A stretch of 33,274 nucleotides of DNA from an uncultured Candidatus Saccharibacteria bacterium (GCA_964594005.1 CAZQKP010000002.1:1-33274), one strand, 5' to 3'; shown: positions 561 to 28,779, counted from the stretch's first letter. Program-made: numbers and translations. Notes: a model not told the origin generated them from the letters alone.

Positions 561-3077
561 TTATTTCTTCTCGTTCATTAATCGGTTATGTTCATCTGTC
601 CCAATTAACCCACAGTTTTTGTATTTTTTACCGGAACCGCAAGGACAAGGGTCATTGCGACCGATCTTTTCGCCTGATTCATTTTTGGGCGCAGGCTTAG
701 CCTGAGATGGGTTACTTTCCCCAAGATTAAAGACATTTTCTCTGCCTTCGGTTAGCTTTATTTGTTCATTGTATAGTTTTATGTTTGGTACAATCTGTGG
801 AATTAACTTTATGATTTCTTGATTAATTGAAATTTCCATTTCTTTAAACAAACGTAGGCCCTCTTTTTTATATTCCACTAATGGATCTCTTTGGCCATAA
901 GCCCGCAAATTGACCGAAGATCTCATGTAATCCATAACCTCCAAGTGTTCCACCCAAAACATATCTGTGGCTTGTAGAATTACTCTTCTAAGTGTTTCGA
1001 AATAAGCTTCGTCCGCTTTTTTCAGTTTTTCTTCTATGATTTCTCTATCTTTGTCAGTTGCTTCCGAAAGGAGATCCTCGATATATCTTTTAACTTCCTC
1101 GTTACTCCCGGTTAATACGGTTTTTCTCCTTTCATACATTACTTTGCGTTGAAAATTTAAGACATCATCAAATTCCAAAACATGTTTGCGGGCATCAAAG
1201 TTAAACCCCTCTATCTTTTCCTGAGCACTTTCTAACGCATTAGTAATCATTCTATTTTGAATTGGCTCATCTTCTTTAATTCCCAGTTTACCCATCATAT
1301 TTTTGATAGAATCTCCACCGAAGACTCGCATAAGGTGGTCATCCAAGGAAACAAAAAACTGAGTCCCGCCGGGATCGCCTTGGCGGCCCGATCTACCACG
1401 AAGCTGATTGTCTATTCGGCGTGCATCATGTCTCTCTGTGCCCAAAACAAATAATCCGCCCGAGGACTTAACTTTTTCATAAGTTTCGGAGGTACCGGGA
1501 TTGCCGCCTATTTTTATATCTACACCTCTACCAGCCATATTTGTTGCAATAGTAACAGCTCCGGGTCTACCGGCTTGCGCAATAATTTCTCCTTCACGAG
1601 TGTGATTTTTGGCATTTAAAATTTCGTGGGGAATACCTTCCGCTTTTAAATACTGAGAAAGCATTTCATTTTTTTCAATGGAGACCGTGCCAATCAAAAC
1701 CGGCTGACCATTCATATATCTATTCTTTACTTCTTTGGAGATTGCCTTGTATTTACCAGCCTCAGTTTGGAAAATCATATCGTTGTCGTCGATTCTAGCT
1801 ACTGTCTTATTAGTTGGGACGGAAATTACATTCAAACCATAAACTTTGTAAAATTCTTCTTTGGAAGTCATCGCAGTACCTGTCATGCCTGAAAGTTTTT
1901 TATAAAGTCTGAAATAATTTTGGAAAGTAACTGAAGCAAATGTTTTAGATTCTTTTTGAATTGGTAAATGCTCCTTGGCTTCAATGGCCTGATGTAAGCC
2001 CTCCGACCATCGCCTACCAGGCTGAAGTCTCCCCGTAAATTCATCCACAATTACCACCTCTTCATCCTTAACAACATAATCTTTATCTTTCTTAAATAGC
2101 GCCTCTGCCCTCACCGCAGTTTCGAGATGATGTACATATTTAATACCTTTTTCGGTATAAATATTTTCAATACCTAAAAGCTCTTCTGCTTTGCTTATGC
2201 CCGAATCAGTTAAAGCAATGGATCTAAATTTTTCATCAATTGTGTAGTGCTCTCCCGATTGGAGCTCACCTGCAATTTTGGCAAAGCGCACATAAAGCTC
2301 ATCCGATTCAGTAGTCGGAGCGGAAATAATAAGAGGCGTACGTGCTTCATCTATTAATATAGAGTCAATTTCATCTACTATTGCATAATTCAATTCTCTT
2401 TGACGCAACTTACCTCGCTCATACTCAATATTATCCCGCAAATAATCAAAACCAAACTCATTGTTTGTCCCATAAGTTATATCAGCAAGATATGCTTCTT
2501 TTCTAGTGACTGGGCGTAGAAATTCACTGTAAACCTTAAATGTGCCGGTTTCATCTCTTTTTTTATCTAATTCGGTGTGGGTGGGATCATACAGAAATGA
2601 TTCGTCGTGATTTATAGCTCCGACAGAAAGGCCAAGAAAGTTATAAATTTGACCCATTAGAACCGCATGAAGCCGGGAAAGATAATCATTTACCGTAATC
2701 AAATGTACACCCTTGCCTTCTAGCGCATTTAAATAAATTGGCAAAGTTGCAACCAGAGTCTTGCCTTCCCCAGTTCTCATTTCTGCAATACCACCTTGAT
2801 GCATAATAATTCCGCCTAAAATCTGGACATCAAAATGCCTCTCCTCCAAAGTCCTTTTGGCAGCCTCGCGAACCAAGGCAAATGCCTCCGGTAAAATATC
2901 ATCCAGAGTTTCACCTTTATTTAACCTTACCCTGAATTCATCCGTCTTTGCTTTTAATTCTTCATCTTTAAGCAAGGCAAGACCACTCTCGAGAGAGTTT
3001 ATTTTTTCTAAGATTGGCTCGAGTTCTTGGAGTCTTTTGCTTGACTCGTCACCAAATATTTTGCCTAAAATTGACAT
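561..3077 (-). CDS. secA: Preprotein translocase ATPase SecA
   Basis: 838 aa. N-terminus MSILGKIFGD..SKR, Walker/DEAD-like VDEIDSILIDEARTPLIIS, motor-domain motifs GTERHDARRIDNQLRGRSGRQGDPG, and the C-terminal zinc-binding tail CPCGSGKKYKNCG. Confidence 0.97.
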   Translation of the reverse strand: MSILGKIFGDESSKRLQELEPILEKINSLESGLALLKDEELKAKTDEFRVRLNKGETLDDILPEAFALVREAAKRTLEERHFDVQILGGIIMHQGGIAEMRTGEGKTLVATLPIYLNALEGKGVHLITVNDYLSRLHAVLMGQIYNFLGLSVGAINHDESFLYDPTHTELDKKRDETGTFKVYSEFLRPVTRKEAYLADITYGTNNEFGFDYLRDNIEYERGKLRQRELNYAIVDEIDSILIDEARTPLIISAPTTESDELYVRFAKIAGELQSGEHYTIDEKFRSIALTDSGISKAEELLGIENIYTEKGIKYVHHLETAVRAEALFKKDKDYVVKDEEVVIVDEFTGRLQPGRRWSEGLHQAIEAKEHLPIQKESKTFASVTFQNYFRLYKKLSGMTGTAMTSKEEFYKVYGLNVISVPTNKTVARIDDNDMIFQTEAGKYKAISKEVKNRYMNGQPVLIGTVSIEKNEMLSQYLKAEGIPHEILNAKNHTREGEIIAQAGRPGAVTIATNMAGRGVDIKIGGNPGTSETYEKVKSSGGLFVLGTERHDARRIDNQLRGRSGRQGDPGGTQFFVSLDDHLMRVFGGDSIKNMMGKLGIKEDEPIQNRMITNALESAQEKIEGFNFDARKHVLEFDDVLNFQRKVMYERRKTVLTGSNEEVKRYIEDLLSEATDKDREIIEEKLKKADEAYFETLRRVILQATDMFWVEHLEVMDYMRSSVNLRAYGQRDPLVEYKKEGLRLFKEMEISINQEIIKLIPQIVPNIKLYNEQIKLTEGRENVFNLGESNPSQAKPAPKNESGEKIGRNDPCPCGSGKKYKNCGLIGTDEHNRLMNEKK

Positions 3078-5973: not shown

Positions 5974-6939
5974 ATGAAAGAAAGGGCTATTAGGCTCCTG
6001 CGGTGGAGTGAAAAATATACTAAAACTGACATGGTTTATCTAGCCCATGGCGGCTTTTGGCTTGGGCTTGCCCAGTTTGTTTCAACTCTCTCTACCTTTT
6101 TACTTTCCGTAGCTTTTGCCAATTTATTAAGTCCAGCCCTGTATGGTACTTATAAATTTATACTTTCTATTTATGCTCTCTTAATAATCACCACCCTCTC
6201 CGGCATGGATTCGGCGGTAACCCAAGCAGTTTCTCGTGGTTATGAAGGCACACTTAATTTAGGTTCCAAGAAAAAAATGCAGTGGGGCACATTGGGAGGG
6301 TTAATTGCTTTAAGTATTGCTTTTTATTATTACTTAAATGGCAATACTCAATTAACTGCCTTGTTTGCCATAACTGCTCTCTTTGTGCCTTTTGCAGAAA
6401 GTTTGGATATTTATAACTCATTTCTATTCGGTAAAAAACTTTTTAGTATCCAAAGTAAATATAACCTCATAAATATTTTAATTACTTTAGTGCTCACCAC
6501 TGGGGCAATTGTCTTAACTAAAAATATTTACTGGATTGTCTTTGCTTACTTCTTTTCAATCACTGTACCCAACATATTTTTTATTTGGTTAACTAATAAA
6601 TACTACAAAACAAACAACTCTGTAGACCAAGATACAATAAAATACGGCAAAAATTTAAGTGCCGTTAATATTATTAGTTTAATTTTCGCCCAACTAGATA
6701 AAGTCCTGGTTTTTCATTATGTAGGAGCAGTAGATTTGGCAGTTTACTCTTTGGCTACGGCACCAAATGATCAAATTAAGGGCCTCCTAAAAAACCTGAA
6801 CACATTGGCAATGCCTAAATATTCTGAAAGATCAGGAGCTGAAGTTAGAGAAAATATTTGGCATAGAATTTTTAAACTTACATTTTTTTTGGTAATTATT
6901 GTAACCGGCTACATAATATTGGTTCCATATTTTTTTTGA
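5974..6939 (+). CDS. Wzx/MOP-family polysaccharide flippase, N-terminal three quarters, ended by an in-frame TGA
   Basis: Polytopic protein with the typical organisation of 'polysaccharide biosynthesis protein' flippases. The likely start is ATG 5974 (MKERAIRLL...). The stop TGA is at 6937-6939. Confidence 0.75.
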   Translation: MKERAIRLLRWSEKYTKTDMVYLAHGGFWLGLAQFVSTLSTFLLSVAFANLLSPALYGTYKFILSIYALLIITTLSGMDSAVTQAVSRGYEGTLNLGSKKKMQWGTLGGLIALSIAFYYYLNGNTQLTALFAITALFVPFAESLDIYNSFLFGKKLFSIQSKYNLINILITLVLTTGAIVLTKNIYWIVFAYFFSITVPNIFFIWLTNKYYKTNNSVDQDTIKYGKNLSAVNIISLIFAQLDKVLVFHYVGAVDLAVYSLATAPNDQIKGLLKNLNTLAMPKYSERSGAEVRENIWHRIFKLTFFLVIIVTGYIILVPYFF

Positions 6940-8768: not shown

Positions 8769-9621
8769 TTTTTTCTAAAATCATAAAAAAATTGTCACGC
8801 AGATTGATCGGTATAGATATTTTTGACAGCAGACCCAGGTTAATCAAAAAAATTCGCATTTTTTGCCATTTATAAAGCATCTTTAAAATGTACTGTAAAG
8901 TAAAGCTCTTCCCTATCTTAGTATTTACTTTTACTTTAAAACCCAGACCTTTCAAATATTGACTTAAATTATTAGGCGAAAAGTAATTTACATGCTCAGG
9001 CGGAATTATTAATTGCCAATATTTACCTAGTACTCTTGCCCATAAACTACTTGCATCTGGAGTATTTATTACCAGAAGTCCTCCTTTTTTTAAAATTCTT
9101 TTTACTTCCAGGAGATCCTCCTCTGGTGAGGTTAAATGCTCAACTACATCTAACATCGTAATTACATCAAAATATCCCTCTGGGAATTTGCCGTCCTCTA
9201 GCTTGCCGGCGACAACATTGAGACCTTTATTTCGGGCCATTTCCGTGGCAAAATTGGACAATTCTACCCCGGTGACCTCAAATCCTCTTGCCTTGGTCAA
9301 GCCCATAAAAAAGCCAGTAGCCGCGCCAATATCAAGAAGCTTTCCTTTTTTGAATCCTAAATTTGAAATTATATCCAAGTACCGGTTAAAGGTAGACACC
9401 ATAGGTTCTTTATCGGCGTCATAATCCACGTAACCAAAACCTGCTTCTGCCCCAGAAAAATAAGCCTTGCTGTAAACGTCGGGAGGGTTTTTAAGAGGTG
9501 GATAAATAAAAATTAATTTGCAGTTCCCGCATTTGTACAGATCATAACCATTTTTATTACAAAAAAAATGAGCCTCACTACCACATAACCAACAATTTAT
9601 TTTTTTAGGATCATTCGCCAT
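8758..9621 (-). CDS. Class I SAM-dependent methyltransferase with an N-terminal zinc ribbon
   Basis: CWLCGS...CGNCKLIF gives four Cys. Motif I is LLDIGAATGFF, and VITMLDVVEHL is typical of Methyltransf_11/23-type enzymes. Confidence 0.85.
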   Translation of the reverse strand: MANDPKKINCWLCGSEAHFFCNKNGYDLYKCGNCKLIFIYPPLKNPPDVYSKAYFSGAEAGFGYVDYDADKEPMVSTFNRYLDIISNLGFKKGKLLDIGAATGFFMGLTKARGFEVTGVELSNFATEMARNKGLNVVAGKLEDGKFPEGYFDVITMLDVVEHLTSPEEDLLEVKRILKKGGLLVINTPDASSLWARVLGKYWQLIIPPEHVNYFSPNNLSQYLKGLGFKVKVNTKIGKSFTLQYILKMLYKWQKMRIFLINLGLLSKISIPINLRDNFFMILEKNET

Positions 9622-10298
9622 GGCGCTAATATTCCTTCGTTCACAATATTATTTGAAATCTTGCTTTCTCCGCCCAAACGATTAACAAAAACAATAGGCA
9701 CTTCTTTTATTTTAGCGCCTTTTTTATACAGTGCGTATTTTAATTCCATTATAAAAGCGTAGCCAGAGGCGCCTAAATTGTCTAGGTTAACTTTGCGTAG
9801 GACAGCCAAGTTTATACAATTAAATCCACCAGTCATATCATTAACTGGCATTCGAGTAATAGTCCTGGCATAAAAATTTCCAAAAAAAGAAAGTAGCCTG
9901 CGCCACAATTCCCAACCAACTGTTTTGCCCCCCCAAATATAACGCGAACCTATAACTAAATCATAATTGTTACTCTCTTCGATTATTTTTCTTAAATATT
10001 TTGGATCGTGCGAAAAATCTGCATCCATCATAAAAACGTGGGTGAAACTACCATCTTTTATAATTTCCTTGAAACCTTGGGTATACGCCTTACCTAAACC
10101 CTCTTTCTTTTCTCTTGATAAAAGAGACAGATTGGGATATTTATTTATCAAATTTTTAACCTTATTACCTGTACCATCCGGAGAATTATCATCTATTACT
10201 TTAATGTAAATCTCCGGACATTCCTCAAAAATTTTGGAGATTACTTTTTCGATATTTGCCACCTCGTTATAGGTGGGCAGGAGAATGACATATTTCAT
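9597..10298 (-). CDS. GT2 polyprenyl-phosphate mannosyl/glycosyl transferase (DPM1/Ppm1-like)
   Basis: Motifs LLPTYNEVANI, DDNSPDGT, GLGKAY, MDADFSHDP. The likely start is ATG 10298 (MKYVILL); the tracked ORF extends to a TTG at 10322. Confidence 0.9.
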   Translation of the reverse strand: MKYVILLPTYNEVANIEKVISKIFEECPEIYIKVIDDNSPDGTGNKVKNLINKYPNLSLLSREKKEGLGKAYTQGFKEIIKDGSFTHVFMMDADFSHDPKYLRKIIEESNNYDLVIGSRYIWGGKTVGWELWRRLLSFFGNFYARTITRMPVNDMTGGFNCINLAVLRKVNLDNLGASGYAFIMELKYALYKKGAKIKEVPIVFVNRLGGESKISNNIVNEGILAPWRMILKK

Positions 10299-11067: not shown

Positions 11068-12936
11068 TTATTTCATCCATCTCTGCCACCACATTGAAAA
11101 TACAAATAATGTCCAAATTTGCTTGCGATTATCTCTTTTGCCACTAAAATGTTCCGCTAGTAGATTTTCAATGTAATCGTAATTAAATAAATCCATTTTT
11201 GAAATTATTTCTTTATTAAGTAAAGCCAGAATATCTTTTTTTAAATCTCCCCGTAGCCATTCTGCTATTGGCATACCAAATCCCTTTTTATTGCGATAAA
11301 CGATATCTCTAGGTAACTTATCTTTCATTAATTCTTTCAATATATATTTTCTCTCTAAACCATGAAGCTTCATATCGGACGGTAAATGATTGGCTAGATC
11401 CACAATCGCAGTATCTAAAAATGGCGCTCGAACCTCTAGAGAATTGAGCATGCTGGCACGATCTACCTTAACCAAAACTTGATCCATCATATAAAGCCTC
11501 TGGTTAAGTAAAGCCAACTCATCATAATAATCTTTAAAATTACTACCTTTAATATATCGGTCGACATCTTCGTATTCATTTTCTTTTTTTACTTTTTGCC
11601 AAATATTTTTTAAGAATAATTTAGATTTATCCTTATGAGAAAACGCACCTAACCATCTTTCGTTACGATAGTCCTGATTACCCTCGAACCCACTTGTAAA
11701 TTTCTTTAATTTAAAGTCTAGACTAATGTTAGAAAAGGAGGTCGGTAAATTATTTATTGCTGGCTCAATTATTTTCTTCCTCAGTACAGCTGGAATAAAC
11801 TCGTAAATTTTTGCTAATTTATGAGCCAAAAACGTGTCGTAGCCAAAGAAAAGTTCGTCTCCCCCATCCCCACCTAAAGCAACTGTGACATGCTCTCTAG
11901 TAAATTTAGAAAGCAAAAATGTTGGAATAATAGAAGCATCTGCGATTGGTTCATCTAAATTATTCCCAATCTCCTTGATAATTTCTAAACCATCTTTAAC
12001 CGACAAGATCTTCTCGTAATGTTCCGTGCCTAAATAATTAGCAACTTCTTTTGCATATTCTGACTCATCAAATGACTTTTCTTTAAAACCGATTGAAAAA
12101 GTCTTTACTTTAGATTTACTCACCCGGGTCGCATAATAAGCAACTGTGCTACTATCAATCCCGCCGGAGAGGAAAACTCCTATAGGCACATCGGAAATAA
12201 GACGCTTTTCTATTGATCTTAAGAGACTGTGATTTAATTCTGTTTTTGCATTATCTAGAGAAGTTTCTTTGGGTAAAAAAGTTGGCTGCCAAAAGTTTTT
12301 TTTGTCGATATTAATTCCGTCATAAGTCAGGTAAGAGCCTGGTTCCAATTTATATGTATTTTTAAAAATAGAATGGGGAGTTGGTATATACTCGTAAGAT
12401 AAATATTTATTTAAGGAATTTATATCAATTTCTCTTTTAAAATTTGGATGATTCATTAAGACCTTGAGTTCTGAACCAAATAAAAAAAGGCCTTCATACT
12501 TATACCAATACAATGGTTTTTTACCCATTCTATCTCTCGCTAAATAAAGTTTGTTTTTCTTTTCATCTAAAAGCGCGATAGTAAACATCCCAGCTAGTTT
12601 AGAAAAAACTTCTTCGCCATACTCTTCGTAAAGATAAATTATTACTTCCGTGTCTGAATTACCCTTAAAATTGTGTTTTTCTTTTAGCTCATTTTTTAAA
12701 TCTTTGTAGTTATAAATTTCACCATTAAATACCAAATGTACAGTATCACTTTCGTTTGACATAGGTTGGTGTCCCGCCGCGGATAAATCAATTATAGAAA
12801 GTCGTCTGTGTCCTAGGCCAATATTATTTCTGACTAAGGTCCCTCGATCATCCGGCCCTCGGTAAGAAACCGAATCAATCATCTTGTCTAAAATTTTTTC
12901 ATTGCCTTCGCCCCAATAGCCTGCTATGCCGCACAT
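11068..12936 (-). CDS. asnB: Asparagine synthase (glutamine-hydrolysing) family amidotransferase
   Basis: 622 aa. N-terminal nucleophile MCGIAGYWG and the PP-loop SGGIDSS. It sits inside a glycan cluster, so the real substrate may be a sugar acid rather than aspartate. Confidence 0.92.
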   Translation of the reverse strand: MCGIAGYWGEGNEKILDKMIDSVSYRGPDDRGTLVRNNIGLGHRRLSIIDLSAAGHQPMSNESDTVHLVFNGEIYNYKDLKNELKEKHNFKGNSDTEVIIYLYEEYGEEVFSKLAGMFTIALLDEKKNKLYLARDRMGKKPLYWYKYEGLFLFGSELKVLMNHPNFKREIDINSLNKYLSYEYIPTPHSIFKNTYKLEPGSYLTYDGINIDKKNFWQPTFLPKETSLDNAKTELNHSLLRSIEKRLISDVPIGVFLSGGIDSSTVAYYATRVSKSKVKTFSIGFKEKSFDESEYAKEVANYLGTEHYEKILSVKDGLEIIKEIGNNLDEPIADASIIPTFLLSKFTREHVTVALGGDGGDELFFGYDTFLAHKLAKIYEFIPAVLRKKIIEPAINNLPTSFSNISLDFKLKKFTSGFEGNQDYRNERWLGAFSHKDKSKLFLKNIWQKVKKENEYEDVDRYIKGSNFKDYYDELALLNQRLYMMDQVLVKVDRASMLNSLEVRAPFLDTAIVDLANHLPSDMKLHGLERKYILKELMKDKLPRDIVYRNKKGFGMPIAEWLRGDLKKDILALLNKEIISKMDLFNYDYIENLLAEHFSGKRDNRKQIWTLFVFSMWWQRWMK

Positions 12937-12937
12937 G

Positions 12938-13879
12938 TTATAAATTAATATGTTCTTTTATTTCATAAGGTGTCCGACCAGCACTTTCAAAGTAAAGCCG
13001 CATAATCATTTCCGCGATCACTCCCATAGCAACCAAGACGACTCCTACAATGATAAATAATGCAGAAAATATTGGTAAAGGGGTGTCTACAAAATGCCTG
13101 ATATTAGCAATTTTTAATATGAGAGAGAGAATACCGGATAGAATTCCAATTCCAAGAGAAATAAAACCAATGCCGCCGAAAAAATGCATTGGCTTATTCA
13201 TGTACTTCGATAAAAATTTCACAACTACCAAGTCCATGAGAACATAAAACGTACGGGCTAGTCCATAATTAGTTTTACCGAATGTTCTCGGGCGATGATT
13301 AACCACAATTTCTGTAATTTTTCCTCCGCGCCAAGAAACATATGCCGGAATAAATCTGTGCATCTCCCCATAAAGCTCGACACTTTTAATCACATCACTT
13401 TTATAGGCTTTCATAGAACAGCCGTAATCATGTATTTTGACTCCGGTAATTAGTCCGATTAATTTATTTGCAATTAGGGATGGAATTTTGCGACTAAAAG
13501 TAAAATCTTTGCGATCTTTACGCCAACCCGAAACCGAATCATAACCTTCGGAAATTTTGTCCAAAAACTTAGGGATATCTGCCGGATCATTTTGAAGGTC
13601 GGCATCCATTGGAATTATCACTTCACCAGTAGCTTGCTTAATCCCAGCTGACATAGCAGCAGTCTGACCTGAATTAAATCTAAATGATAAAACTTTTACT
13701 TTTTTATCTTTGTGAGCTATATCTTTGAGAACTACGAGGCTAGAGTCCCTGGAGGCATCATTTACACAAATAATTTCATAATCCTTTTTTAGACTATCTA
13801 GAACAACTTTCAATTCCTTGTATAAAATAGGCAGATTTTTCTCCTCGTTATAAATAGGTAAAACAATCGAAATTTTCAT
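12938..13879 (-). CDS. GT2 polyprenyl-phosphate sugar synthase with two C-terminal TM helices (GtrB/ArnC/CsbB-like)
   Basis: Motifs VLPIYNEEKNL, VNDASRDSS, NSGQTAAMSAG, MDADLQNDP. The C-terminal hydrophobic helices are FFGGIGFISLGIGILSGIL and LFIIVGVVLVAMGVIAEMI. Confidence 0.9.
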   Translation of the reverse strand: MKISIVLPIYNEEKNLPILYKELKVVLDSLKKDYEIICVNDASRDSSLVVLKDIAHKDKKVKVLSFRFNSGQTAAMSAGIKQATGEVIIPMDADLQNDPADIPKFLDKISEGYDSVSGWRKDRKDFTFSRKIPSLIANKLIGLITGVKIHDYGCSMKAYKSDVIKSVELYGEMHRFIPAYVSWRGGKITEIVVNHRPRTFGKTNYGLARTFYVLMDLVVVKFLSKYMNKPMHFFGGIGFISLGIGILSGILSLILKIANIRHFVDTPLPIFSALFIIVGVVLVAMGVIAEMIMRLYFESAGRTPYEIKEHINL

Positions 13880-21887: not shown

Positions 21888-22217
21888 TTAAAATCTGGGC
21901 AGAATCTCAACTACATCACCTACTTGCCAATTTGCAACTGGTTTTAAAAGTTCTACTACTTCAATATGTTTCGGATGTTTTTTAAAATCTTCAAATGACT
22001 TCTGATCTTTGAAAATAGCAATCTCGACCAGGTGAACACCTTTTCTTAAATCCATATTTGGTTGTACAGACCAAAAAAGTATGCCGGCGTTTTTCCCTCC
22101 ACAGTCATCCCCCAGAGTTGCGTATCGAGCTGCAATCTCTTGTTTTATTTCTTCACTCGCTTCGGGCAGAAAAGAAATGAAAATTACATGGTGTAGATAT
22201 GATTCCTTTATTTCCAT
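21888..22217 (-). CDS. Dabb (stress-responsive alpha/beta barrel) domain protein
   Basis: 109 aa. The protein has HHVIFISF near its N-terminus and ...FEDFKKHPKHIEVVELL later, typical of Dabb-family proteins. Confidence 0.7.
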   Translation of the reverse strand: MEIKESYLHHVIFISFLPEASEEIKQEIAARYATLGDDCGGKNAGILFWSVQPNMDLRKGVHLVEIAIFKDQKSFEDFKKHPKHIEVVELLKPVANWQVGDVVEILPRF

Positions 22218-22224
22218 GAGTCAC

Positions 22225-22253
22225 AATATACCTTAAAATTTTCAATTTGACAA
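22225..22253 (-). promoter_or_regulatory. Sigma-70-like promoter TTGTCA-17-TATATT, 7 nt upstream of the Dabb ATG (leaderless geometry)
   Basis: The minus strand reads TTGTCAaattgaaaattttaaggTATATTgtgactcATG. Confidence 0.45.
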
Positions 22254-22274
22254 GTAGGGATAATGTGTTAGCAT
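22247..22274 (+). promoter_or_regulatory. Candidate divergent promoter TTGACA-16-TAGCAT for the HD-domain gene
   Basis: TTGACA at 22247-22252 shares its bases with the minus-strand TTGTCA. TAGCAT is at 22269-22274. The SD GGAGGTG at 22304-22310 precedes ATG 22313. Confidence 0.35.
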
Positions 22275-22312
22275 TGAGACAGAAATCGGCCGCATTGGCC
22301 ATTGGAGGTGCG

Positions 22313-23020
22313 ATGGAGATTGACAGAAGCCGGATCCTCCTTACATTCGGGAGGCTCCGACAAGAAAACTGGGCATTCTATGAGGAGGTCAAGCGCCTCC
22401 ACACACAGAGCCCATCGAAGCGTCAGAGAGGCCATGGCATGGAACATAACGTGCACGTGGCCCTGCACGCTCTCGACATCATGCAGAGCGATTACGCTGG
22501 GCAGGAGCGTTTGGAGAAGCTGGTTTTCCTGGCAGCTATCGCCCACTCCCTCGATCGCCTGTTCGAGAGGGGCGCCGACAACAGCTTCGCGAACCTCGTA
22601 CACAATTGCCTCGAGCTGACCGACCTCAATGAGAGCGACAAGTCTGTCGTACTCGAATCAGTCCTCGATCATGAAAAGAAAAACGACGAGGGACGAATCG
22701 ACACGCGGGTCACAGTGATCCTCAAGGATGCCGACCGCGTTGCCAACATGGGTGCGGCTCTGGCGATCCGGAGCGGGCAATTCAGACCGGATATCCCGCC
22801 GTACGAGATGGCGCACCTGCGGACATCGAACCCTGCGTCGACCTACCGGGATCCCTCGTCGGTTTTCGAGGACTTGCGTGGCTGCTTCGAGTGGATCGAT
22901 TGGATGCGAACCGAGCGTGGTTACGCACTCATCGTCCAGAAAGCTGCGAACCTCCGCAAATACCTCGAGACGGTCGCCGACGAATTCGAGTTCATCGGCA
23001 TGATCCGTGTCGAGATCTGA
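22313..23020 (+). CDS. HD-domain phosphohydrolase (YedJ/YpgQ-like pattern), high-GC foreign gene
   Basis: GHGMEHNVHVA, LAAIAHSLDR and ILKDADRVANMGAALAIRSG occur in the usual order of HD-superfamily motifs, but HS replaces the canonical HD. Third codon positions are almost all G/C in this frame. ATG 22313 lies 2 nt after GGAGGTG. The tracked start at 22247 is the TTG of a -35 box. Confidence 0.6.
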   Translation: MEIDRSRILLTFGRLRQENWAFYEEVKRLHTQSPSKRQRGHGMEHNVHVALHALDIMQSDYAGQERLEKLVFLAAIAHSLDRLFERGADNSFANLVHNCLELTDLNESDKSVVLESVLDHEKKNDEGRIDTRVTVILKDADRVANMGAALAIRSGQFRPDIPPYEMAHLRTSNPASTYRDPSSVFEDLRGCFEWIDWMRTERGYALIVQKAANLRKYLETVADEFEFIGMIRVEI

Positions 23021-23027
23021 CACAGCT

Positions 23028-23068
23028 GGCCTGCACCCTACGGGGTGCAGGCCGGTTTCTATTTTCTT
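23028..23068 (+). terminator. Intrinsic terminator of the HD gene
   Basis: Perfect 11-bp stem GGCCTGCACCC / GGGTGCAGGCC with a TACG loop, followed by GGTTTCTATTTTCTT. Confidence 0.85.
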
Positions 23069-23106
23069 GCAGATTTAGCGTACTTTGATAAATTAGGATT
23101 ATTAAA

Positions 23107-23784
23107 ATGAAAAGGCTCTCCATAATTATCCCCGCCAAAAATGAGGCGAAAACAATTGGTGAAATAATAAGAAAAGTAAAAGAAATTAATTTACCTCTTT
23201 GGGAAAAAGAGATAATTGTAATTGATAATAATTCCGCTGATGGAACAGAAAACATCTCGCGGTCATTGGGGGTTACAACTCTGAAAGAAATGGGACCTGG
23301 TAAAGGTTCAGCAGTAAAAAAGGGGCTCGCGAACGCAACAGGCGACTTTATTCTTATTCAAGATGCGGACCTGGAATATAATCCGGAGGACATCCCCCTA
23401 CTTTTAGATAAAGCTAAAGATAAAACTGCTGTGTTTGGTTCTCGAAATTTAAAATCGCACCGTAAGGGCACATGGTTAGCTCGAGCCGGAGTTTGGTTTT
23501 TAACTAAAGAATTCAATTTGCTGTTCAGAACAAAACTAACTGATTTGTGGACATGCTACAAACTCTTCCCCAAAGAAGCGGCAAATTTATTTGCAGCTGG
23601 CGGCTTTGAATCGGAATTAACTTTTTCAGCCAACCTCATAAAAAATAAATTTATGATTGAAGAAGTATCAATTTCTTACAATAACCCCAGGACCGAAGCG
23701 GAAGGCAAAAAAATTCATTATATGGACGGAATACGAGGGATTTTTGTTTTACTGAAAGATAGATTTATAAACCCAAAAATTTAA
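23107..23784 (+). CDS. GT2 glycosyltransferase (DPM1-like, soluble type)
   Basis: Motifs IIIPAKNEAKTI, IDNNSADGT, GKGSAVKKG and IQDADLEYNP. Low-GC host composition. Confidence 0.88.
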   Translation: MKRLSIIIPAKNEAKTIGEIIRKVKEINLPLWEKEIIVIDNNSADGTENISRSLGVTTLKEMGPGKGSAVKKGLANATGDFILIQDADLEYNPEDIPLLLDKAKDKTAVFGSRNLKSHRKGTWLARAGVWFLTKEFNLLFRTKLTDLWTCYKLFPKEAANLFAAGGFESELTFSANLIKNKFMIEEVSISYNNPRTEAEGKKIHYMDGIRGIFVLLKDRFINPKI

Positions 23785-24880
23785 TTATTGGATTTATATT
23801 TATAAAATTTAGAATAAAAGCATCCATTAAAAAATTCGTGATTATATAAAGAAATAACACAGGTAATATATAAAGCATTCTTTTCTCAATTCTTTCAATA
23901 AATAAACAAGTCACCAACACGGCGGCTGGCATAGAAATAAATAAGACTCTCGTAACAACAGGCCAAAGTAAAATTGCAAAAGAAGAAGTAATTACTAGCC
24001 AAATAAAAAATACCCTTTTTTCTCTAAAGACCTCCCTGTATCTTTTAAGCAGCAAGTAAAATCCAGGCAAAAATAAAAACCAAGCAAAATTATAAATTGA
24101 GCCAAATGATTTTATGAACTCAACTACCCTATCTTGATATGCATAGACTTTTTGATAAGTAAACCAATTCCAGTAAGTATAGTGATCGTAATTAATAAAA
24201 GTATAAACATTCATTAGAGCAAAAGGTAAAAATGAAATTAAACCAGAAACAAAAACCTGCTTAATTACGTCTCTCCATTTGCGCCAATGTTTAAATAAAA
24301 TTACACCAAATAAAACCACATAAGCTACAAATGCATACTCTTTATACAGTCCACCTAATCCAATTGCTAAAGATGCAAAATACAACCATTTATTTTCTGC
24401 CTCTTCTAAATAACGATAGGTAAAATAAATAGATGCTAGATAGAATGCCCAGCCCCCCATATCCATTAGATAACCTAGGCCGAAGACAATAATCGCATAG
24501 TTGGTCATCAAAAATAAGGAGCCTAAAAAAGCTATGTTTTCTTCTTTAAAAATTTTTTTTAATAAAGAATGGAAAAACAAACCAGCAGATACATATAAAA
24601 TAACATCAACAATTAGCCACGAGATCGCAAGATCGTGAAAAAATATATCAAAAAGCATAATCGCCTTTAAACCAAGAGGTGTTGTCAAAATCATCTCCGG
24701 CATAAAACCCGCAGGCCTAATTCCGGTTCTTATAACATTTATACTGTCCACATAAAGTAAACTATCCCCCGCAATTTTTGGCTTTAAAGCTAATGGCGAG
24801 AAGATGGCCAGAAAAATCAAAATAAAAAATAACAAGGCGAAATAGTGATCTTGTTTAAATTTTAAAATTATTTTTTTCAT
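23765..24880 (-). CDS. Multi-pass membrane protein, possible small GT-C-type transferase
   Basis: 371 aa with about 10 hydrophobic segments. The acidic segment AGDSLLYVDS follows TM1. Its start is ATGA-coupled to the upstream methyltransferase gene. Confidence 0.4.
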   Translation of the reverse strand: MKKIILKFKQDHYFALLFFILIFLAIFSPLALKPKIAGDSLLYVDSINVIRTGIRPAGFMPEMILTTPLGLKAIMLFDIFFHDLAISWLIVDVILYVSAGLFFHSLLKKIFKEENIAFLGSLFLMTNYAIIVFGLGYLMDMGGWAFYLASIYFTYRYLEEAENKWLYFASLAIGLGGLYKEYAFVAYVVLFGVILFKHWRKWRDVIKQVFVSGLISFLPFALMNVYTFINYDHYTYWNWFTYQKVYAYQDRVVEFIKSFGSIYNFAWFLFLPGFYLLLKRYREVFREKRVFFIWLVITSSFAILLWPVVTRVLFISMPAAVLVTCLFIERIEKRMLYILPVLFLYIITNFLMDAFILNFININPIIKFLGL

Positions 24881-25725
24881 TTCTTTCTACCTAAGATATA
24901 AAGGTGAGCCGCTACCGCTTCAGCCCCTGGCATTTTCATAAAAAAATAATCTGGATATTTTAAAGGACCCAGAACTAACATAAAAACATGAGCTAAAAAT
25001 GGCGCGGCTTTTCTTGAACCAAAAGAAAAAATTACACCTAGCCAATAAGCCAAAAACATTAAGAAAGCACTCCATGGACCTGATCTAACTCCAGATTCAA
25101 CTATTTCTAATTCCGGAAACATGTACTTTAGACCAGAAATTGTCCAACGATTAAAATCATCCGGCGAAGCGTGATAAGGATGAATAAATGGCGCACTCAC
25201 ATAAATATAACCACCTGGCTTAACTATACGAACCATTTCCTTGGCAACTTTGTGCGCATCCGGCACATGCTCAAAAACTGATTCTGAAACTGCGCCATCT
25301 ACTGAATTGTCGGGGAATGGTAGCTCCTCTGCATTTGCCACAATATCTACTTCCGGGAAGGGATAGACATCTATATTTGTAAATTCTTTGCCTAATCTTT
25401 CTGGACCAGAACCAATATCTAAGATCGTGGCATCAGGCTTTACATTTTTTAAAATCATTCTCGGGCCATTTACTAACATCATCACTGGGCAAAAGACATG
25501 CCAGACTCCGTAATAAACTTTTGGCCATCTTTTTAAGAAAGACTTTAGCCAATTAACTCCTGACTCGTGTTGGTTAGAATTCTTAATATAAATTTTTTGT
25601 TCAATTAGAATTGGCCTTCCATCCACATCAATATCAAAATCACCATGAGTTGCACAGGTATATTTATCTGTTTTTTTTAGTTTACCTTTGCAAATAGGAC
25701 AAACTAGAGTTAGATTCGAGCTCAT
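24877..25725 (-). CDS. SAM-dependent methyltransferase with an N-terminal Trm112-like zinc ribbon and a C-terminal hydrophobic anchor
   Basis: Motifs CPICKGKL...CATHG, ILDIGSGPERLG and AVSESVFEHV. The C-terminal hydrophobic region is WSAFLMFLAYWLGVIFSF...FLAHVFMLVLGPL. The likely start is ATG 25725, overlapping the upstream TGA (ATGA); the tracked ORF extends to 25749. Confidence 0.85.
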   Translation of the reverse strand: MSSNLTLVCPICKGKLKKTDKYTCATHGDFDIDVDGRPILIEQKIYIKNSNQHESGVNWLKSFLKRWPKVYYGVWHVFCPVMMLVNGPRMILKNVKPDATILDIGSGPERLGKEFTNIDVYPFPEVDIVANAEELPFPDNSVDGAVSESVFEHVPDAHKVAKEMVRIVKPGGYIYVSAPFIHPYHASPDDFNRWTISGLKYMFPELEIVESGVRSGPWSAFLMFLAYWLGVIFSFGSRKAAPFLAHVFMLVLGPLKYPDYFFMKMPGAEAVAAHLYILGRKK

Positions 25726-27407
25726 TTTATATTTGGAGCATTGTGACAATCATAAATCTTTGCGGACATAGCTTTATCAGTTTCATTATATATAATCTGG
25801 CAACTATTAAAGTATCTGGCATAAATTGTATTTTGGTCAAAACGTGGTACATCTAGAACAAAATAGTCTTCTTTATATTTATTTAGATTTGCGATCTTAT
25901 CAGCAAAGGCAATGGGGTCGTTGTCAAATTTTGGATCAATATAAAGTCTTTTACGATACTTGCCAATTTGTTGAATATCAAAGCCACCATTGTCATTGTA
26001 AGTAGTGACCATATCTACTTTCGGATTATTTTTCATAAATTCCACTGCGTGATGTAAAAGCTTTGGCGCCGAACCATTTATTAAACCAAATAAATATTCT
26101 TCCATAAAAACTCCATTATAAATTATGCCTAATGGAATAAGAAACGAGACTGCGAGTAAACGGTGTTTGGAACTAACTAAACCCCAACCAGTCGCAAAAA
26201 GCGAAACAAGCCAGACTGATGCCATAAAGAGAAAAGAGACATAAAAACCTAAGGGACCGGAGCCTCCTGAAAAAGGATACAGAAAATTCCATTTTAGACT
26301 CAAGATGCGACTAATCCACTCTGTTTTGGGATTAAGCGGTGGCACATAGTGATTTATAAACTCTAGAGCAAAAAATAAAATAGATAAAAGTGAGGCAAAT
26401 ATAAAGAATTTCTTGTTTAATTTTTTAAACTGAGCTAAAGAAACTGCATTCATGACTGACAAAGGTAGGACTAGTAATTGTAAATAACGATCCAATGCTC
26501 CCGTTGAGAAATCAAATAAAACAACATAAAAAATAAAGGCAAAGATTAAAAAGAAAATAAAAACTCTTAATTTAGGTAAATCCTCTTTTTTTATAAATAA
26601 AGAGATAAAAACCAAGAAAGGCGAAGAATAAAGAAATGCTTTAACACACTGGATAAATGTCTGAAGCCATCCTTTATTTAAAGTGGCAAAGTGCTCCCAA
26701 TACGAAAGTGAAGCAGATAAATGAAAGAAGGGAAATATCTTTTGAGACAGAAATAGAATTAAAATAAACACGATGATCGCCGAAGCGAGCCAGCTAAGAT
26801 ATTTTAAAACGTCTTTTTTGGACAAATAATTTCTTCTGGACCACAAAAAATCAGCAAGGATTGCGCCAACAGCTAAAACAAAGCTAATTTTCACTAATAA
26901 CCCGAATAAAGAAGAAATAATTAGTAGAATCCCCCATTTGTACTTTTGTTGACCTTCTGTATTTAGTAATTTCGTGTAACCTATGAGAGACAAGAGAAAA
27001 AAGAAGGGTAAAATTTCACCATCGGTATCAACCATGAGTGATGCAAGAATAGAAAAATAAGCCAAAGACCAAATTAGAGATGCAAGTATCCCTTCTTTTT
27101 TACCAAAATTTTCCCGAACAAAATAATAAAGTAAAAATAAATTTAATGTACCAAAAAATAAAGGCACAAAACGAAAATTCACATTAAAACCAACAATATA
27201 ACCTGATGTTTTATAAATTAATTCACTTAAGGGCGGGTGTGGAATCGAAACATCACTTACATAACCCGGACTAGTTATAAGTGGCCACTTGTATTCGTCT
27301 TGATGTAGGGGCAGATGAACACCTGGAAGACGAACCAAAAGAAAGACTAAAATAATTAGAGGTAAGAATATTTTTTCGTTAGTAAAAATATCTCTTATTG
27401 CTTTCAT
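25722..27407 (-). CDS. GT-C-fold membrane glycosyltransferase (ArnT/PMT_2-like)
   Basis: 561 aa with about 12 hydrophobic segments. LHQDEYKW follows TM1 (the GT-C acidic loop position). A C-terminal soluble domain is present. Confidence 0.55.
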   Translation of the reverse strand: MKAIRDIFTNEKIFLPLIILVFLLVRLPGVHLPLHQDEYKWPLITSPGYVSDVSIPHPPLSELIYKTSGYIVGFNVNFRFVPLFFGTLNLFLLYYFVRENFGKKEGILASLIWSLAYFSILASLMVDTDGEILPFFFLLSLIGYTKLLNTEGQQKYKWGILLIISSLFGLLVKISFVLAVGAILADFLWSRRNYLSKKDVLKYLSWLASAIIVFILILFLSQKIFPFFHLSASLSYWEHFATLNKGWLQTFIQCVKAFLYSSPFLVFISLFIKKEDLPKLRVFIFFLIFAFIFYVVLFDFSTGALDRYLQLLVLPLSVMNAVSLAQFKKLNKKFFIFASLLSILFFALEFINHYVPPLNPKTEWISRILSLKWNFLYPFSGGSGPLGFYVSFLFMASVWLVSLFATGWGLVSSKHRLLAVSFLIPLGIIYNGVFMEEYLFGLINGSAPKLLHHAVEFMKNNPKVDMVTTYNDNGGFDIQQIGKYRKRLYIDPKFDNDPIAFADKIANLNKYKEDYFVLDVPRFDQNTIYARYFNSCQIIYNETDKAMSAKIYDCHNAPNIK

Positions 27408-27416
27408 GTTTTTAAA

Positions 27417-27422
27417 AATATA
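27417..27422 (-). promoter_or_regulatory. -10-like hexamer TATATT, 9 nt upstream of the GT-C ATG
   Basis: The minus strand reads tttgtTATATTtttaaaaacATG, with no SD. Confidence 0.3.
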
Positions 27423-27439
27423 ACAAATTAATCGTCTTT

Positions 27440-27477
27440 TTGATATCTATTGATAAATCCTAAAATTATGTTATCTT
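27440..27477 (+). promoter_or_regulatory. Host-composition promoter candidates upstream of the DUF218 gene
   Basis: Two options are TTGATA (27440-45)-15-TAAAAT (27461-66), or TTGATA (27450-55)-16-TATCTT (27472-77). The SD GAGGTG at 27487-27492 lies 4 nt before ATG 27497. Confidence 0.3.
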
Positions 27478-27496
27478 AGCGCGAGAGAGGTGCCGC

Positions 27497-28102
27497 ATGG
27501 CATTTATTGACTGGCTTGCAAGAAAGTGGGCAGTCTCAGATAACCCGCCCACTCACGCCGACCTGATCTTCGCGGTTGCCCACGGGAGTGTCAGAGAACG
27601 ACCGTCAAAAGGTCTGGAGGCTGTTGTAAGCAAGACCGAAGAGCTCACGAAGAGATACGCAGGGATGATTTCCCAGCCCTTCGTCGCCTTCGGAGAATTC
27701 ACGTACTCGGGGCCAACATCAAGGGATGTGGAAGCGGAATTCAAGCTCGATCACTTTCCCAAGGGCCGCTTCATCGGGCTTGTGGCAAGCACAACCGAAG
27801 AAGCAATGAAAGCCTACGACCTCGCGGCCAGGCTTCCGTGTGACCCGCGCAAGATCGTGATTGTGACCGATGAGTCACATTCGCGACGCTGCCGCCTGAT
27901 CTGGCAGGAATTCTTTCCGCTAGCAGAGATCTTCATCGTAACCGTCCCCCTCCGAGACGTTGTAGAGAGAAATAGCCCGATGTGGGCATACCGCGCCGCC
28001 TGGCGCATTCTCCTGCTCAACATCGCGCTCACACCGTTGTTCGCCGCGATGAAGCGCGAGCAAATGGAGAAGCTCTGCAAATTCCACCAACCCACATTCT
28101 AA
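27497..28102 (+). CDS. DUF218 (YdcF/SanA/ElyC-like) domain protein, high-GC foreign gene
   Basis: ADLIFAVAHGS, ASTTEEAMKAYDL and IVIVTDESHSRRCRLIW match the order and character of DUF218 motifs. A C-terminal hydrophobic helix is AAWRILLLNIALTPLFAAM. Third codon positions are G/C-rich. Confidence 0.6.
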   Translation: MAFIDWLARKWAVSDNPPTHADLIFAVAHGSVRERPSKGLEAVVSKTEELTKRYAGMISQPFVAFGEFTYSGPTSRDVEAEFKLDHFPKGRFIGLVASTTEEAMKAYDLAARLPCDPRKIVIVTDESHSRRCRLIWQEFFPLAEIFIVTVPLRDVVERNSPMWAYRAAWRILLLNIALTPLFAAMKREQMEKLCKFHQPTF

Positions 28103-28111
28103 CCACTTGTA

Positions 28112-28145
28112 CCCGCTGCCAGAAATGGCAGCGGGTTTTGTTATT
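28112..28145 (+). terminator. Intrinsic terminator of the DUF218 gene
   Basis: Perfect 10-bp stem CCCGCTGCCA / TGGCAGCGGG with a GAAA loop, followed by TTTTGTTATTT. The T-tract runs into the stop codon (28141-28143) of the convergent methyltransferase gene. Confidence 0.85.
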
Positions 28146-28779
28146 TCTTCGCCACAAAAAGCATTTGTCCTGCAAAAGGTTTAACCGGTGATTTTAAATA
28201 AGTTCGAACAATAAGAGGGTGAAGTGGCATTAATTTGGGACGGGAAGCCAAAGAAAAAGGCAAAAAACGTGGTTTCTCTAATTCAATATTAAAGCCAAAA
28301 CTTATTAGAAACGCTTTTAAGGAAACATCTGAGAAAACTTTTTTATGGGTTGGATCATCAAAATAAGTTTTGGAAGATAATCTAAAATTTGGCTGCATTA
28401 ATATAAGTCTGCCTTTCTTTTTTAAAACTCTATTTACTTCTTTCATGGTTAAAGAAAGCTCGTAGTCGGTTAAATGCTCAAAAAGATTGCTAGCAAAAAC
28501 TACGTCCACCGAATCTGTTGGGATTTTACTCATATCGGTTACGGACGACTCGATAGTCTTAACATCCTTATCTGCGTATTTTTTAAAATCAGGTGAGTGA
28601 TCTAGGGCAATTTTATTTTGCGCATCTACATTATTAATAAAATCACAATAACCTGCACCTAAATCTACAACTGTACCTTTTGCTGGAATGAATTTCTTTA
28701 AATATGAAACAATTTCTTTCCAAACTACGGAGCGATCGTTGTTCCAAACATATCTAGATTTGTAATAAGAGTCTTTCAT
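28141..28779 (-). CDS. Class I SAM-dependent methyltransferase
   Basis: Motifs VVDLGAGYCDF and VFASNLFEHL...GRLILMQPN. Confidence 0.85.
   Translation of the reverse strand: MKDSYYKSRYVWNNDRSVVWKEIVSYLKKFIPAKGTVVDLGAGYCDFINNVDAQNKIALDHSPDFKKYADKDVKTIESSVTDMSKIPTDSVDVVFASNLFEHLTDYELSLTMKEVNRVLKKKGRLILMQPNFRLSSKTYFDDPTHKKVFSDVSLKAFLISFGFNIELEKPRFLPFSLASRPKLMPLHPLIVRTYLKSPVKPFAGQMLFVAKK

Follow-up and report, generated by a model that had tools for sequence, protein, structure and literature searches.

The locus described here raises the question of how two single genes of GC-rich composition came to stand in an AT-rich glycan locus, and why they have remained GC-rich. The stretch that we analyzed (the window) comprises 33,274 nucleotides from an uncultured Candidatus Saccharibacteria bacterium (GCA_964594005.1 CAZQKP010000002.1:1-33274) and has a GC content of 36.0% overall and 35.1% without the two islands. 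The islands are sharp blocks at 22.2-23.1 kb and 27.4-28.2 kb with a peak GC of 0.58-0.62, each consisting of one plus-strand open reading frame (ORF1 and ORF2, respectively) in a gene array that otherwise lies on the minus strand. They had originally been predicted, from the sequence, to be foreign cassettes captured by a common and undescribed mechanism. The reading that we prefer, and that we judge to be evenly poised between true and false, is that they are native accessory-gene modules of a surface-glycan locus of Paceibacteria (candidate phyla radiation, CPR), whose GC content is held high by a family-specific pressure, and not recent captures.

The islands themselves are real. ORF1 has 57.6% GC (0.61, 0.37 and 0.74 at first, second and third codon positions; GC1, GC2 and GC3) and ORF2 has 55.8% (0.57, 0.44 and 0.67) against a background of 35%, with a background GC3 of ~0.31, and the codon usage of both is C3-dominant and rich in CGN and CTN codons. 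Both genes therefore show the atypical composition and codon usage by which recent transfer is recognized. We found no third island of similar size across the 33 kb window, in which SecA (561-3077) has ~40% GC; related genomes, judged from names of metagenome-assembled genomes (MAGs) and from local medians, have 35-44%. Orientation is not the sole cause of the high GC content, because the plus-strand GT2 gene that follows ORF1 (23107-23784) has only 37%. The coordinates and strings that had been quoted all agreed with the sequence, as did the layout: both islands contain a sigma-70-type promoter with a TG-extended -10 element, a GAGGTG-type Shine-Dalgarno (SD) site, a single ORF and a perfect 11-bp stem with a T-tract (Table 1), both modules are self-contained and placed at operon break points, and minus-strand -10 hexamers lie 7 nt ahead of the ATG (at 22217) of the Dabb gene beside ORF1 and 9 nt ahead of the ATG (at 27407) of the PMT_2 gene beside ORF2.

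The relatives of the two genes were found in the same surroundings. A word-indexed search of 5.8 billion proteins returned five homologues of ORF1 at 55-62% identity and one of ORF2 at 64%. The ORF2 homologue stands at the same site, between a 562-aa PMT_2 gene and a 212-aa methyltransferase gene, in both an NCBI MAG (L001) and a Logan contig (L002; labels with L denote related loci), and has 54.8% GC in a 37% genome. Homologues of ORF1 adjoin the same Dabb gene in L003, L005 and L008 and precede the same GT2 gene in L006, with 56-63% GC (GC3 up to 0.91) between flanks of 33-38%; further ORF1 relatives adjoin Dabb or PMT_2. Scanning GTDB species genomes with PMT_2 gave 80 loci, all in Patescibacteria/Paceibacteria MAGs, and ORF2 relatives were present in 22 of them. 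In 14 of 74 loci the ORF2 relative is directly divergent from PMT_2 across a spacer of 84-117 bp, a layout that we also found on additional metagenome contigs, and the back-to-back ORF2/PMT_2 promoters are conserved among the related loci. A scan of JGI metagenomes gave no match for ORF2 and, for ORF1, solely the L005 contig that was already known. Taken together, the synteny of ORF2 relatives with PMT_2 and of ORF1 relatives with Dabb speaks against a foreign origin, and the proposed common donor lineage did not materialize, as the nearest homologues of both ORFs sit in the host's own lineage. Absence from close relatives combined with nearest homologues in a donor lineage is seen for neither ORF. 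The ORF1 relatives lie mostly on contigs of 1-3 kb (L003-L008, L089) that end in or just past the GC-rich gene; compositional switches may break assembly or binning and leave ORF1-type genes under-represented in MAGs.

Furthermore, the ORF2 family has diverged in step with its neighbor. The amino-acid identities of ORF2 and PMT_2 in three independent pairs of loci were 65 vs 66%, 71 vs 69% and 81 vs 80%, and the two distance matrices are correlated (Mantel r = 0.41; 0 of 5000 permutations reached that value). High GC content accompanies the family throughout: each of the 23 ORF2-family genes is GC-richer than its background (on average 49.1 vs 35.6% GC, an excess of 6.7-20.5 points; GC3 0.55 vs 0.31), and their GC content is uncorrelated with that of the genome (r = 0.14). 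Members of the ORF1 family have 43-65% GC in AT-rich genomes and equal the background in GC-rich genomes. In particular, distant HD relatives in AT-rich glycan loci reach 52% against 38% (L092) and 49% against 39% (L090), and HD relatives in the GC-rich genomes L091 (54% GC) and L080 (48%) do not depart from their surroundings.

This compositional bias is older than the signal at synonymous sites. Four-fold degenerate sites between orthologues are near or at saturation (identity 0.28-0.42 vs 0.25-0.34 expected on composition; K4 from 1.4 to infinity), and the GC content of these sites (GC4) in ORF1 (0.67-0.87) is well above that in Dabb (0.17-0.33); ORF2 has a GC4 of 0.40-0.69, and the adjacent PMT_2 has lower values, mostly 0.15-0.38. 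A resampling (F81-type) model of neutral decay, applied to the residual four-fold identity, put the share of four-fold sites left unchanged in each lineage at no more than about 30-50%, and decay toward the composition of the flanks would cap GC4 at ~0.5-0.6 even from a start of 100% GC. The values observed in ORF1 (0.67-0.87) and in the ORF2 of the window (0.69) are above this cap. Since GC-richness outlasts synonymous saturation, some GC-favoring pressure must hold it high, and the best reading is that it is a maintained trait of the ORF1 and ORF2 families and not the footprint of a recent transfer. For the closest pair, L049 and L065, the best outgroup is only 50% identical.

The same pair shows what is gained or lost. 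L065 and L049, which carry the module, differ from the collinear L070, which is without it and whose PMT_2 is 80% identical, by a clean indel of ~712 bp, which spans the module's terminator hairpin, ORF and SD site together with the promoter that belongs to it. Conserved in loci with and without the module are the end of the gene upstream and the leaderless-type promoter of PMT_2; the indel boundaries carry no repeat. The unit present or absent in relatives is thus the whole module from promoter to terminator, as had been supposed from the window. In the "empty" state, found in 52 of 74 related loci, a same-strand gene of 214-240 aa precedes PMT_2 and often overlaps it by 1-4 nt, and a GC-rich opposite-strand gene adjoins PMT_2 in ~20 of 76 loci, scattered over the PMT_2 neighbor-joining tree. 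The locus is a mosaic, with genes neighboring the modules varying between close relatives. At the ORF1 seam, L001 (5133-5537) and L002 (3308-3712) have an FdtA-like sugar isomerase gene of 50.6% GC, with Dabb and HD absent, and in L003 (1324-2073) an SDR gene of 57% GC with its own promoter and terminator is inserted between Dabb and HD.

GC-rich genes of this kind are not limited to the two families. By crude gene calls, 63 of 1332 genes in the related loci (about 5%) exceeded the local median by 9 GC points or more, and they fell into DUF218-like, HD, Dabb-like, FdtA, NUDIX, SDR and B12-radical-SAM families. We found that such genes are enriched at strand-switch positions across the 80 loci: they made up 27% of opposite-strand singletons, 9% of the edges of strand switches and 1% of genes inside co-directional runs. 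With the two focal families removed the shares were 15% of singletons and 1% of co-directional genes, families not being independent samples. In L047 (background 36% GC), four GC-rich genes surround PMT_2, namely a NUDIX gene (6327-6887, 60% GC), a gene of 177 aa at the ORF2 position (9383-9916, 54%), a Dabb-like gene (11755-12156, 58%) and an HD gene (12234-12938, 64.5%, GC3 0.89), of which, unlike in the window, Dabb and HD are co-directional and both GC-rich. A B12-binding radical-SAM family of ~520-590 aa is 9-16 GC points above background in L037 (19328-21100), L066, L055, L079 and L030.

We then compared the predicted folding of these transcripts with controls in which synonymous codons were shuffled within blocks of 25 codons. 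For each of the 10 GC-rich genes tested, the predicted fold was more stable than in its shuffles (z -0.7 to -4.5, mean -2.3), and four AT-rich neighbor genes had z scores of -0.6 to +1.6; every GC-rich value is below every control value (exact one-sided probability 1/1001). The ORF2 transcript was also more stably folded than a dinucleotide-preserving control (z = -2.7). These results suggest selection at the RNA level on the GC-rich genes. An overlapping sequence-specific element, such as an antisense ORF or a conserved RNA, is unlikely, because conservation of four-fold sites is at chance level; synonymous sites are conserved in composition, not in sequence, which argues against such an element.

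The mechanism that we propose for native modules is as follows. Each module would be transcribed on its own, from an extended -10 promoter close to consensus that stands back to back with the leaderless-type promoter of the minus-strand neighbor, and would comprise a strong SD site, a single ORF and an intrinsic terminator that acts in one direction; the predicted HD YpgQ-like phosphohydrolase (ORF1) would be linked to Dabb and the DUF218-like protein (ORF2) to an ArnT/PMT_2-type glycosyltransferase. Presence or absence at the same seam would arise from exchange of alleles by homologous recombination in the conserved flanks together with deletion, much as in capsule and O-antigen loci, and a dedicated recombinase would not be needed. 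Modules would be found at operon seams because insertion elsewhere would break operons. The pressure that we prefer is selection on transcript composition and folding, which would give a stable and highly folded mRNA to a gene oriented head-on within an array of AT-rich operons. A broader form of this proposal, which we put forward only tentatively and consider possible but doubtful, is that a gene-specific GC-favoring force acts in AT-rich CPR genomes, and that a gene's composition, far from recording where the gene came from, is itself under selection. A few monocistronic accessory genes (HD, DUF218-like, NUDIX, FdtA, SDR and radical-SAM), mostly head-on at operon seams, would then be held at 45-65% GC over very long periods, because their transcripts would have to be GC-rich and strongly folded, for instance to withstand antisense read-through or RNases among otherwise AU-rich transcripts.

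The strongest rival to native modules is a source-sink process, in which AT-rich Paceibacteria acquire the modules over and over from an unsampled pool of GC-rich DNA (relatives of high GC content, host bacteria or some other element), homology in the flanks directs them to the same seams, and frequent loss keeps amelioration from ever being completed. We regard this as unlikely, albeit a serious contender, and several observations weigh for it and against in-situ maintenance. GC1 and GC2 are shifted as well, and with them amino-acid composition, as expected of genes that evolved in a GC-rich genome; the entire coding sequence, including its C3-dominant codons, is of that type. Presence and absence require at least 14 Fitch changes on a neighbor-joining tree without support values. 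Dabb and HD give conflicting four-taxon groupings, and the nearest neighbors of ORF2 and PMT_2 disagree in 12 of 22 loci; with gene histories in conflict, exchange or replacement must occur, and modules may be re-seeded from outside. The ORF1 seam holds other GC-rich cargo in relatives (FdtA, or SDR plus HD), and GC-rich CPR genomes with a related HD gene do exist (L091, L080). In addition, a word-indexed search may miss donors, the exhaustive profile search covered the ORF1 family only, and gene calls in the related loci were crude. Finally, many bacteria reportedly show excess mRNA structure in their native genes as a usual feature (Katz and Burge 2003), and native genes of GC-rich bacteria can show it too; the folding signal is therefore compatible with in-situ selection and with a GC-rich origin alike.

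Other evidence runs against the source-sink process. Wherever the context of a closest homologue was examined, the homologue proved to be a GC island on an AT-rich contig; no close relative was found in a GC-rich context and no homologue in a GC-rich donor, and the GC-rich relatives that carry PMT_2 are without the ORF2 module. The three orthologue pairs described above have diverged as much as their adjacent PMT_2 genes, with promoters and the ~90-bp spacer conserved. For ORF1, ORF2 and the other GC-rich cargo, no cluster mates of at least 90% identity were found in other taxa, and carriage by phages or plasmids found no match in IMG/VR, INPHARED phages or PLSDB plasmids.

GC-biased gene conversion could in principle yield a similar pattern, if accessory genes were recombination hot spots at which biased repair of heteroduplexes raised GC. 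The surroundings of the modules bear signs of recombination, the rise in GC extends to every codon position, and no sequence-specific conservation is seen at synonymous sites (four-fold identity near random). However, the razor-sharp boundaries match transcript ends, and the neighboring genes, namely those for PMT_2, Dabb and the methyltransferase, have remained AT-rich. The trait tracks the gene family even 3-4 kb from PMT_2, and the effect, 20-60 points of GC3, is well above what has been reported for such conversion in bacteria; the effects described by Lassalle et al. (2015) are said to be far smaller than the shift seen here. We consider this explanation improbable.

Still less probable, in our judgment, is the dedicated site-specific capture of promoter-ORF-hairpin cassettes through a TTAGC..GAGA motif or the hairpin, as originally predicted. 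That the indel unit runs exactly from promoter to terminator, that modules recur at the same seam across many lineages, and that GC-rich genes favor opposite-strand singletons so markedly over co-directional runs would all suit such a mechanism. The likeness of the junction strings, however, did not exceed chance. The best local alignment of the 5' regions scored 15 vs 14.6 +/- 2.3 for dinucleotide shuffles, 44% of which did as well or better, and that of the 3' regions scored 13 vs 13.4 +/- 2.3 (59% of shuffles), which rules out the motif as a recombination signal. The ORF1 promoter covers most of the first string (22263-22280) and the ORF2 promoter includes the start of the second (27468-27487), and the letters common to both are an extended -10 element (TGTTAGCAT / TGTTATCTT) plus the SD site, generic features in the orthologues. 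The hairpins are ordinary terminators without a common sequence. The absence of an integrase, transposase or terminal repeat beside the islands, part of the original description, extends further: by Pfam domains there is no recombinase, integrase or transposase gene in the 33 kb or in the related loci examined, no attC core (GTTRRRY / RYYYAAC) within about 60-120 nt of the island boundaries, no flanking direct repeat of at least 8 nt, no target duplication, no inverted repeat other than the imperfect one described below, and no tRNA gene that could serve as an insertion target. The marks of transposons, insertion sequences and integrative islands (terminal repeats, duplication, transposase, att target) are thus missing from the islands, and an Rfam search of islands and untranslated regions (UTRs) gave just a chance match (E = 0.85). 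With orthologues that co-diverge with their flanks, without junction motif or recombinase, and with a layout that is that of any monocistronic bacterial gene, the notion of an undescribed capture route finds no support, and the patchy presence of modules is sufficiently accounted for by deletion together with recombination in the conserved flanks. An assembly or binning artefact, in which chimeric contigs join foreign GC-rich reads, is barely credible: ORF1 relatives do lie mostly on short contigs, as where composition shifts break assemblies, but independent assemblies have the same junctions (the NCBI MAG L001 matches Logan L002), the layout occurs in more than 20 GTDB species genomes and in ENA, JGI and Logan contigs, and synteny is conserved, with promoters of host type, SD sites and terminators all in precise positions.

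We next consider the products of the two genes. Although a Pfam search with the ORF1 protein of the window gave no match, PF01966 (HD) was matched by 35 of 61 sampled members of its family, for which an exhaustive profile search yielded 272 cluster representatives. The family profile matched PDB entry 2pq7 (E 3.6e-14) as well as SE1688, YedJ and YpgQ. The AlphaFold model has a pLDDT (predicted local distance difference test) of 95, and its top Foldseek matches were 2pjq, 3dto, 2qgs and YpgQ 5dqw (probability 1.00, template-modeling (TM) score 0.6-0.7). ORF1 is accordingly a predicted HD phosphohydrolase of the YpgQ/YedJ type. The position of the HD dyad reads H-S-L-D in ORF1 and H-S-x-D in the family (H78, D81), and H41, H45, H120 and D141 are nearly invariant, a pattern by which the family is a putative variant metal-site group within an HD subfamily of about 270 clusters. 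The 5' UTR of ORF1 is GC-rich (about 61%), its terminator has a perfect 11-bp stem (23028-23038/23043-23053) with the loop TACG before a T-rich tail, and the relatives in L003, L005 and L008 each have their own TTGAC-type promoter.

ORF2 scored 21.4 bits against PF02698, under the cut-off of 27.6, and its orthologue P0008 has a precomputed match to that family; the ORF2 family profile gave no match to PDB sequences. The model (pLDDT 81) is Rossmann-like, and its closest structural match is E. coli YdcF (3ca8), at a TM score of 0.49 and with weak E-values. ORF2 is, as predicted from profile and model, a distant DUF218/YdcF-like protein, with the conserved motifs STTxE, VTDxAHSRRxR, SPM and HQPT and a long hydrophobic C-terminal helix. 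The DUF218 proteins ElyC and SanA have been implicated in envelope and undecaprenyl-linked precursor metabolism (PMC3879167, PMC8609368, PMC12176290). By analogy, ORF2 probably acts on lipid-linked glycan intermediates, and such a role would fit a partner of a PMT_2/ArnT-type transferase. Its orthologues have TGTGATATAAT/TGTTATAAT-type extended -10 elements at the same position, and nearly all are followed by an equivalent of its terminator hairpin. Both predicted terminators of the window consist of a GC-rich stem-loop directly followed by a U-tract; that of ORF2 abuts the stop codon (28141) of the convergent 212-aa methyltransferase gene and is without a T-tract in the minus direction. A 13-nt AT-rich inverted repeat (85% complementary) brackets the second island (27415-27427, 28137-28149), its arms being the PMT_2 -10 region and the T-tail of the terminator; it is probably due to chance, because L001 is without it.

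The minus-strand neighbors have promoters of their own. The -10 elements of Dabb and PMT_2 lie directly ahead of their start codons and neither gene has an SD site, an arrangement characteristic of leaderless genes. The Dabb mRNA is probably leaderless, because its -10 ends 7 nt before the ATG and an SD site is absent, and the sequences suggest the same of the PMT_2 mRNAs in these CPR bacteria. In at least 11 related loci, some of them "empty", an extended -10 element (TGTTAGTAT/TGTGGTAGCAT) is conserved 7-10 nt ahead of the start codon of PMT_2; the loci examined with this element are L001, L011, L016, L019, L024, L042, L049, L058, L062, L064, L065 and L070. The seam between ORF1 and Dabb reads as a compact bidirectional promoter in a 95-bp spacer. 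The -35 hexamers of the two genes overlap at 22247-22253 (TTGTCA on the minus strand, TTGACA on the plus strand). More widely, the region from 3.7 to 33 kb is a glycan locus with Wzy_C, a flippase, GT1, GT2 and GT4 glycosyltransferases, PMT_2 proteins, methyltransferases, DegT and Gmd. Within it, the GT2 gene (23107-23784, plus strand) and a 371-aa PMT_2 gene (23765-24880, minus strand) converge with a 20-bp overlap (23765-23784) and no terminator between them.

Table 1. Predicted features of the two GC-rich modules and of the adjoining minus-strand promoters (coordinates counted from the first letter of the window).
Feature	Position	Strand	Basis
Dabb gene promoter, TTGTCA-17-TATATT	22225-22253	-	Scan, sequence
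ORF1 promoter, TTGACA-16-TAGCAT, TG-extended -10	22247-22274	+	Promoter consensus scan
ORF1 Shine-Dalgarno site, GGAGGTG	22304-22310	+	Sequence
ORF1, 235 aa, predicted HD-superfamily phosphohydrolase of type YpgQ/YedJ/SE1688	22313-23020	+	Profile, Pfam of relatives, model
ORF1 predicted intrinsic terminator	23024-23066	+	Consensus scan (23024-23057) plus T-rich tail
PMT_2 gene (561 aa), -10 hexamer TATATT, TG-extended	27417-27422	-	Sequence
ORF2 promoter, TTGATA-16-TATCTT, TG-extended -10	27450-27477	+	Promoter consensus scan
ORF2 Shine-Dalgarno site, GAGGTG	27487-27492	+	Sequence; GAGGTG/GGAGG kept in orthologues
ORF2, 201 aa, predicted distant DUF218/YdcF-like Rossmann-type protein	27497-28102	+	Weak Pfam, model
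ORF2 predicted intrinsic terminator, perfect 11-bp stem with 4-nt loop (28111-28136), T-rich tail	28111-28146	+	Consensus scan

Several known systems share some of these features. Like capsule and O-antigen loci, the modules have a setting of glycosyltransferases, methyltransferases and a flippase, with accessory genes present or absent at fixed positions, a mosaic structure and exchange without involvement of a recombinase. In classical capsule and O-antigen loci, however, it is the whole locus that departs from the genome in composition, being AT-poor or AT-rich, and this is read as recent transfer; in the present case the departure, 20 GC points above locus and genome alike, is confined to single genes and persists across saturated divergence. 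Integron cassettes and CALINs (clusters of attC sites lacking integron integrases) are likewise single-ORF units with a structured 3' element and no integrase nearby, but integron cassettes as a rule have no promoter, terminate in an attC site (R''/L''-L'/R', GTTRRRY core) and form arrays in one direction; the modules described here have their own TG-extended promoters and perfect 11-bp terminator stems with 4-nt loops, with no attC core and no array. According to the model attributed to Lawrence and Ochman, acquired compositional islands are said to ameliorate over time. The two ORFs resemble such islands as sharp outliers in GC content and codon usage, and differ from them in that amelioration is not apparent, GC4 remaining at 0.54-0.87 in orthologues saturated at four-fold sites, in that no donor was found, and in that synteny and promoters are conserved.

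In the excludons of Listeria a gene is embedded in antisense orientation, and GC-richness is not a described feature. The modules share with them a single opposite-strand gene amid co-directional genes, an arrangement known here from sequence, and the one-way terminators make antisense transcription by read-through plausible. One study describes the lgr genes (large GC-rich genes) of Protochlamydia amoebophila, a GC-rich gene family in a genome of lower GC (PMC2216083). They are comparable in being markedly GC-rich coding genes kept in a lower-GC genome; as described there, the lgr genes are multi-kb leucine-rich-repeat genes of one genome, whereas ORF1 and ORF2 are small enzyme genes that are GC-rich across many species.

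These findings assign two CPR "hypothetical" genes to predicted enzyme families of glycan and envelope precursor metabolism, and document conserved bidirectional seams of predicted leaderless-type promoters in CPR glycan loci. Atypical GC content is routinely taken as a sign of recent transfer, with amelioration as a clock; here, composition follows the gene family and not the genome. If this were true genome-wide, composition-based calls of horizontal gene transfer and binning filters would mislabel or drop such CPR genes, a concern with which the short, broken contigs of the ORF1 relatives are in keeping. It would also mean that an unrecognized selective or mutational force acts on individual transcripts.

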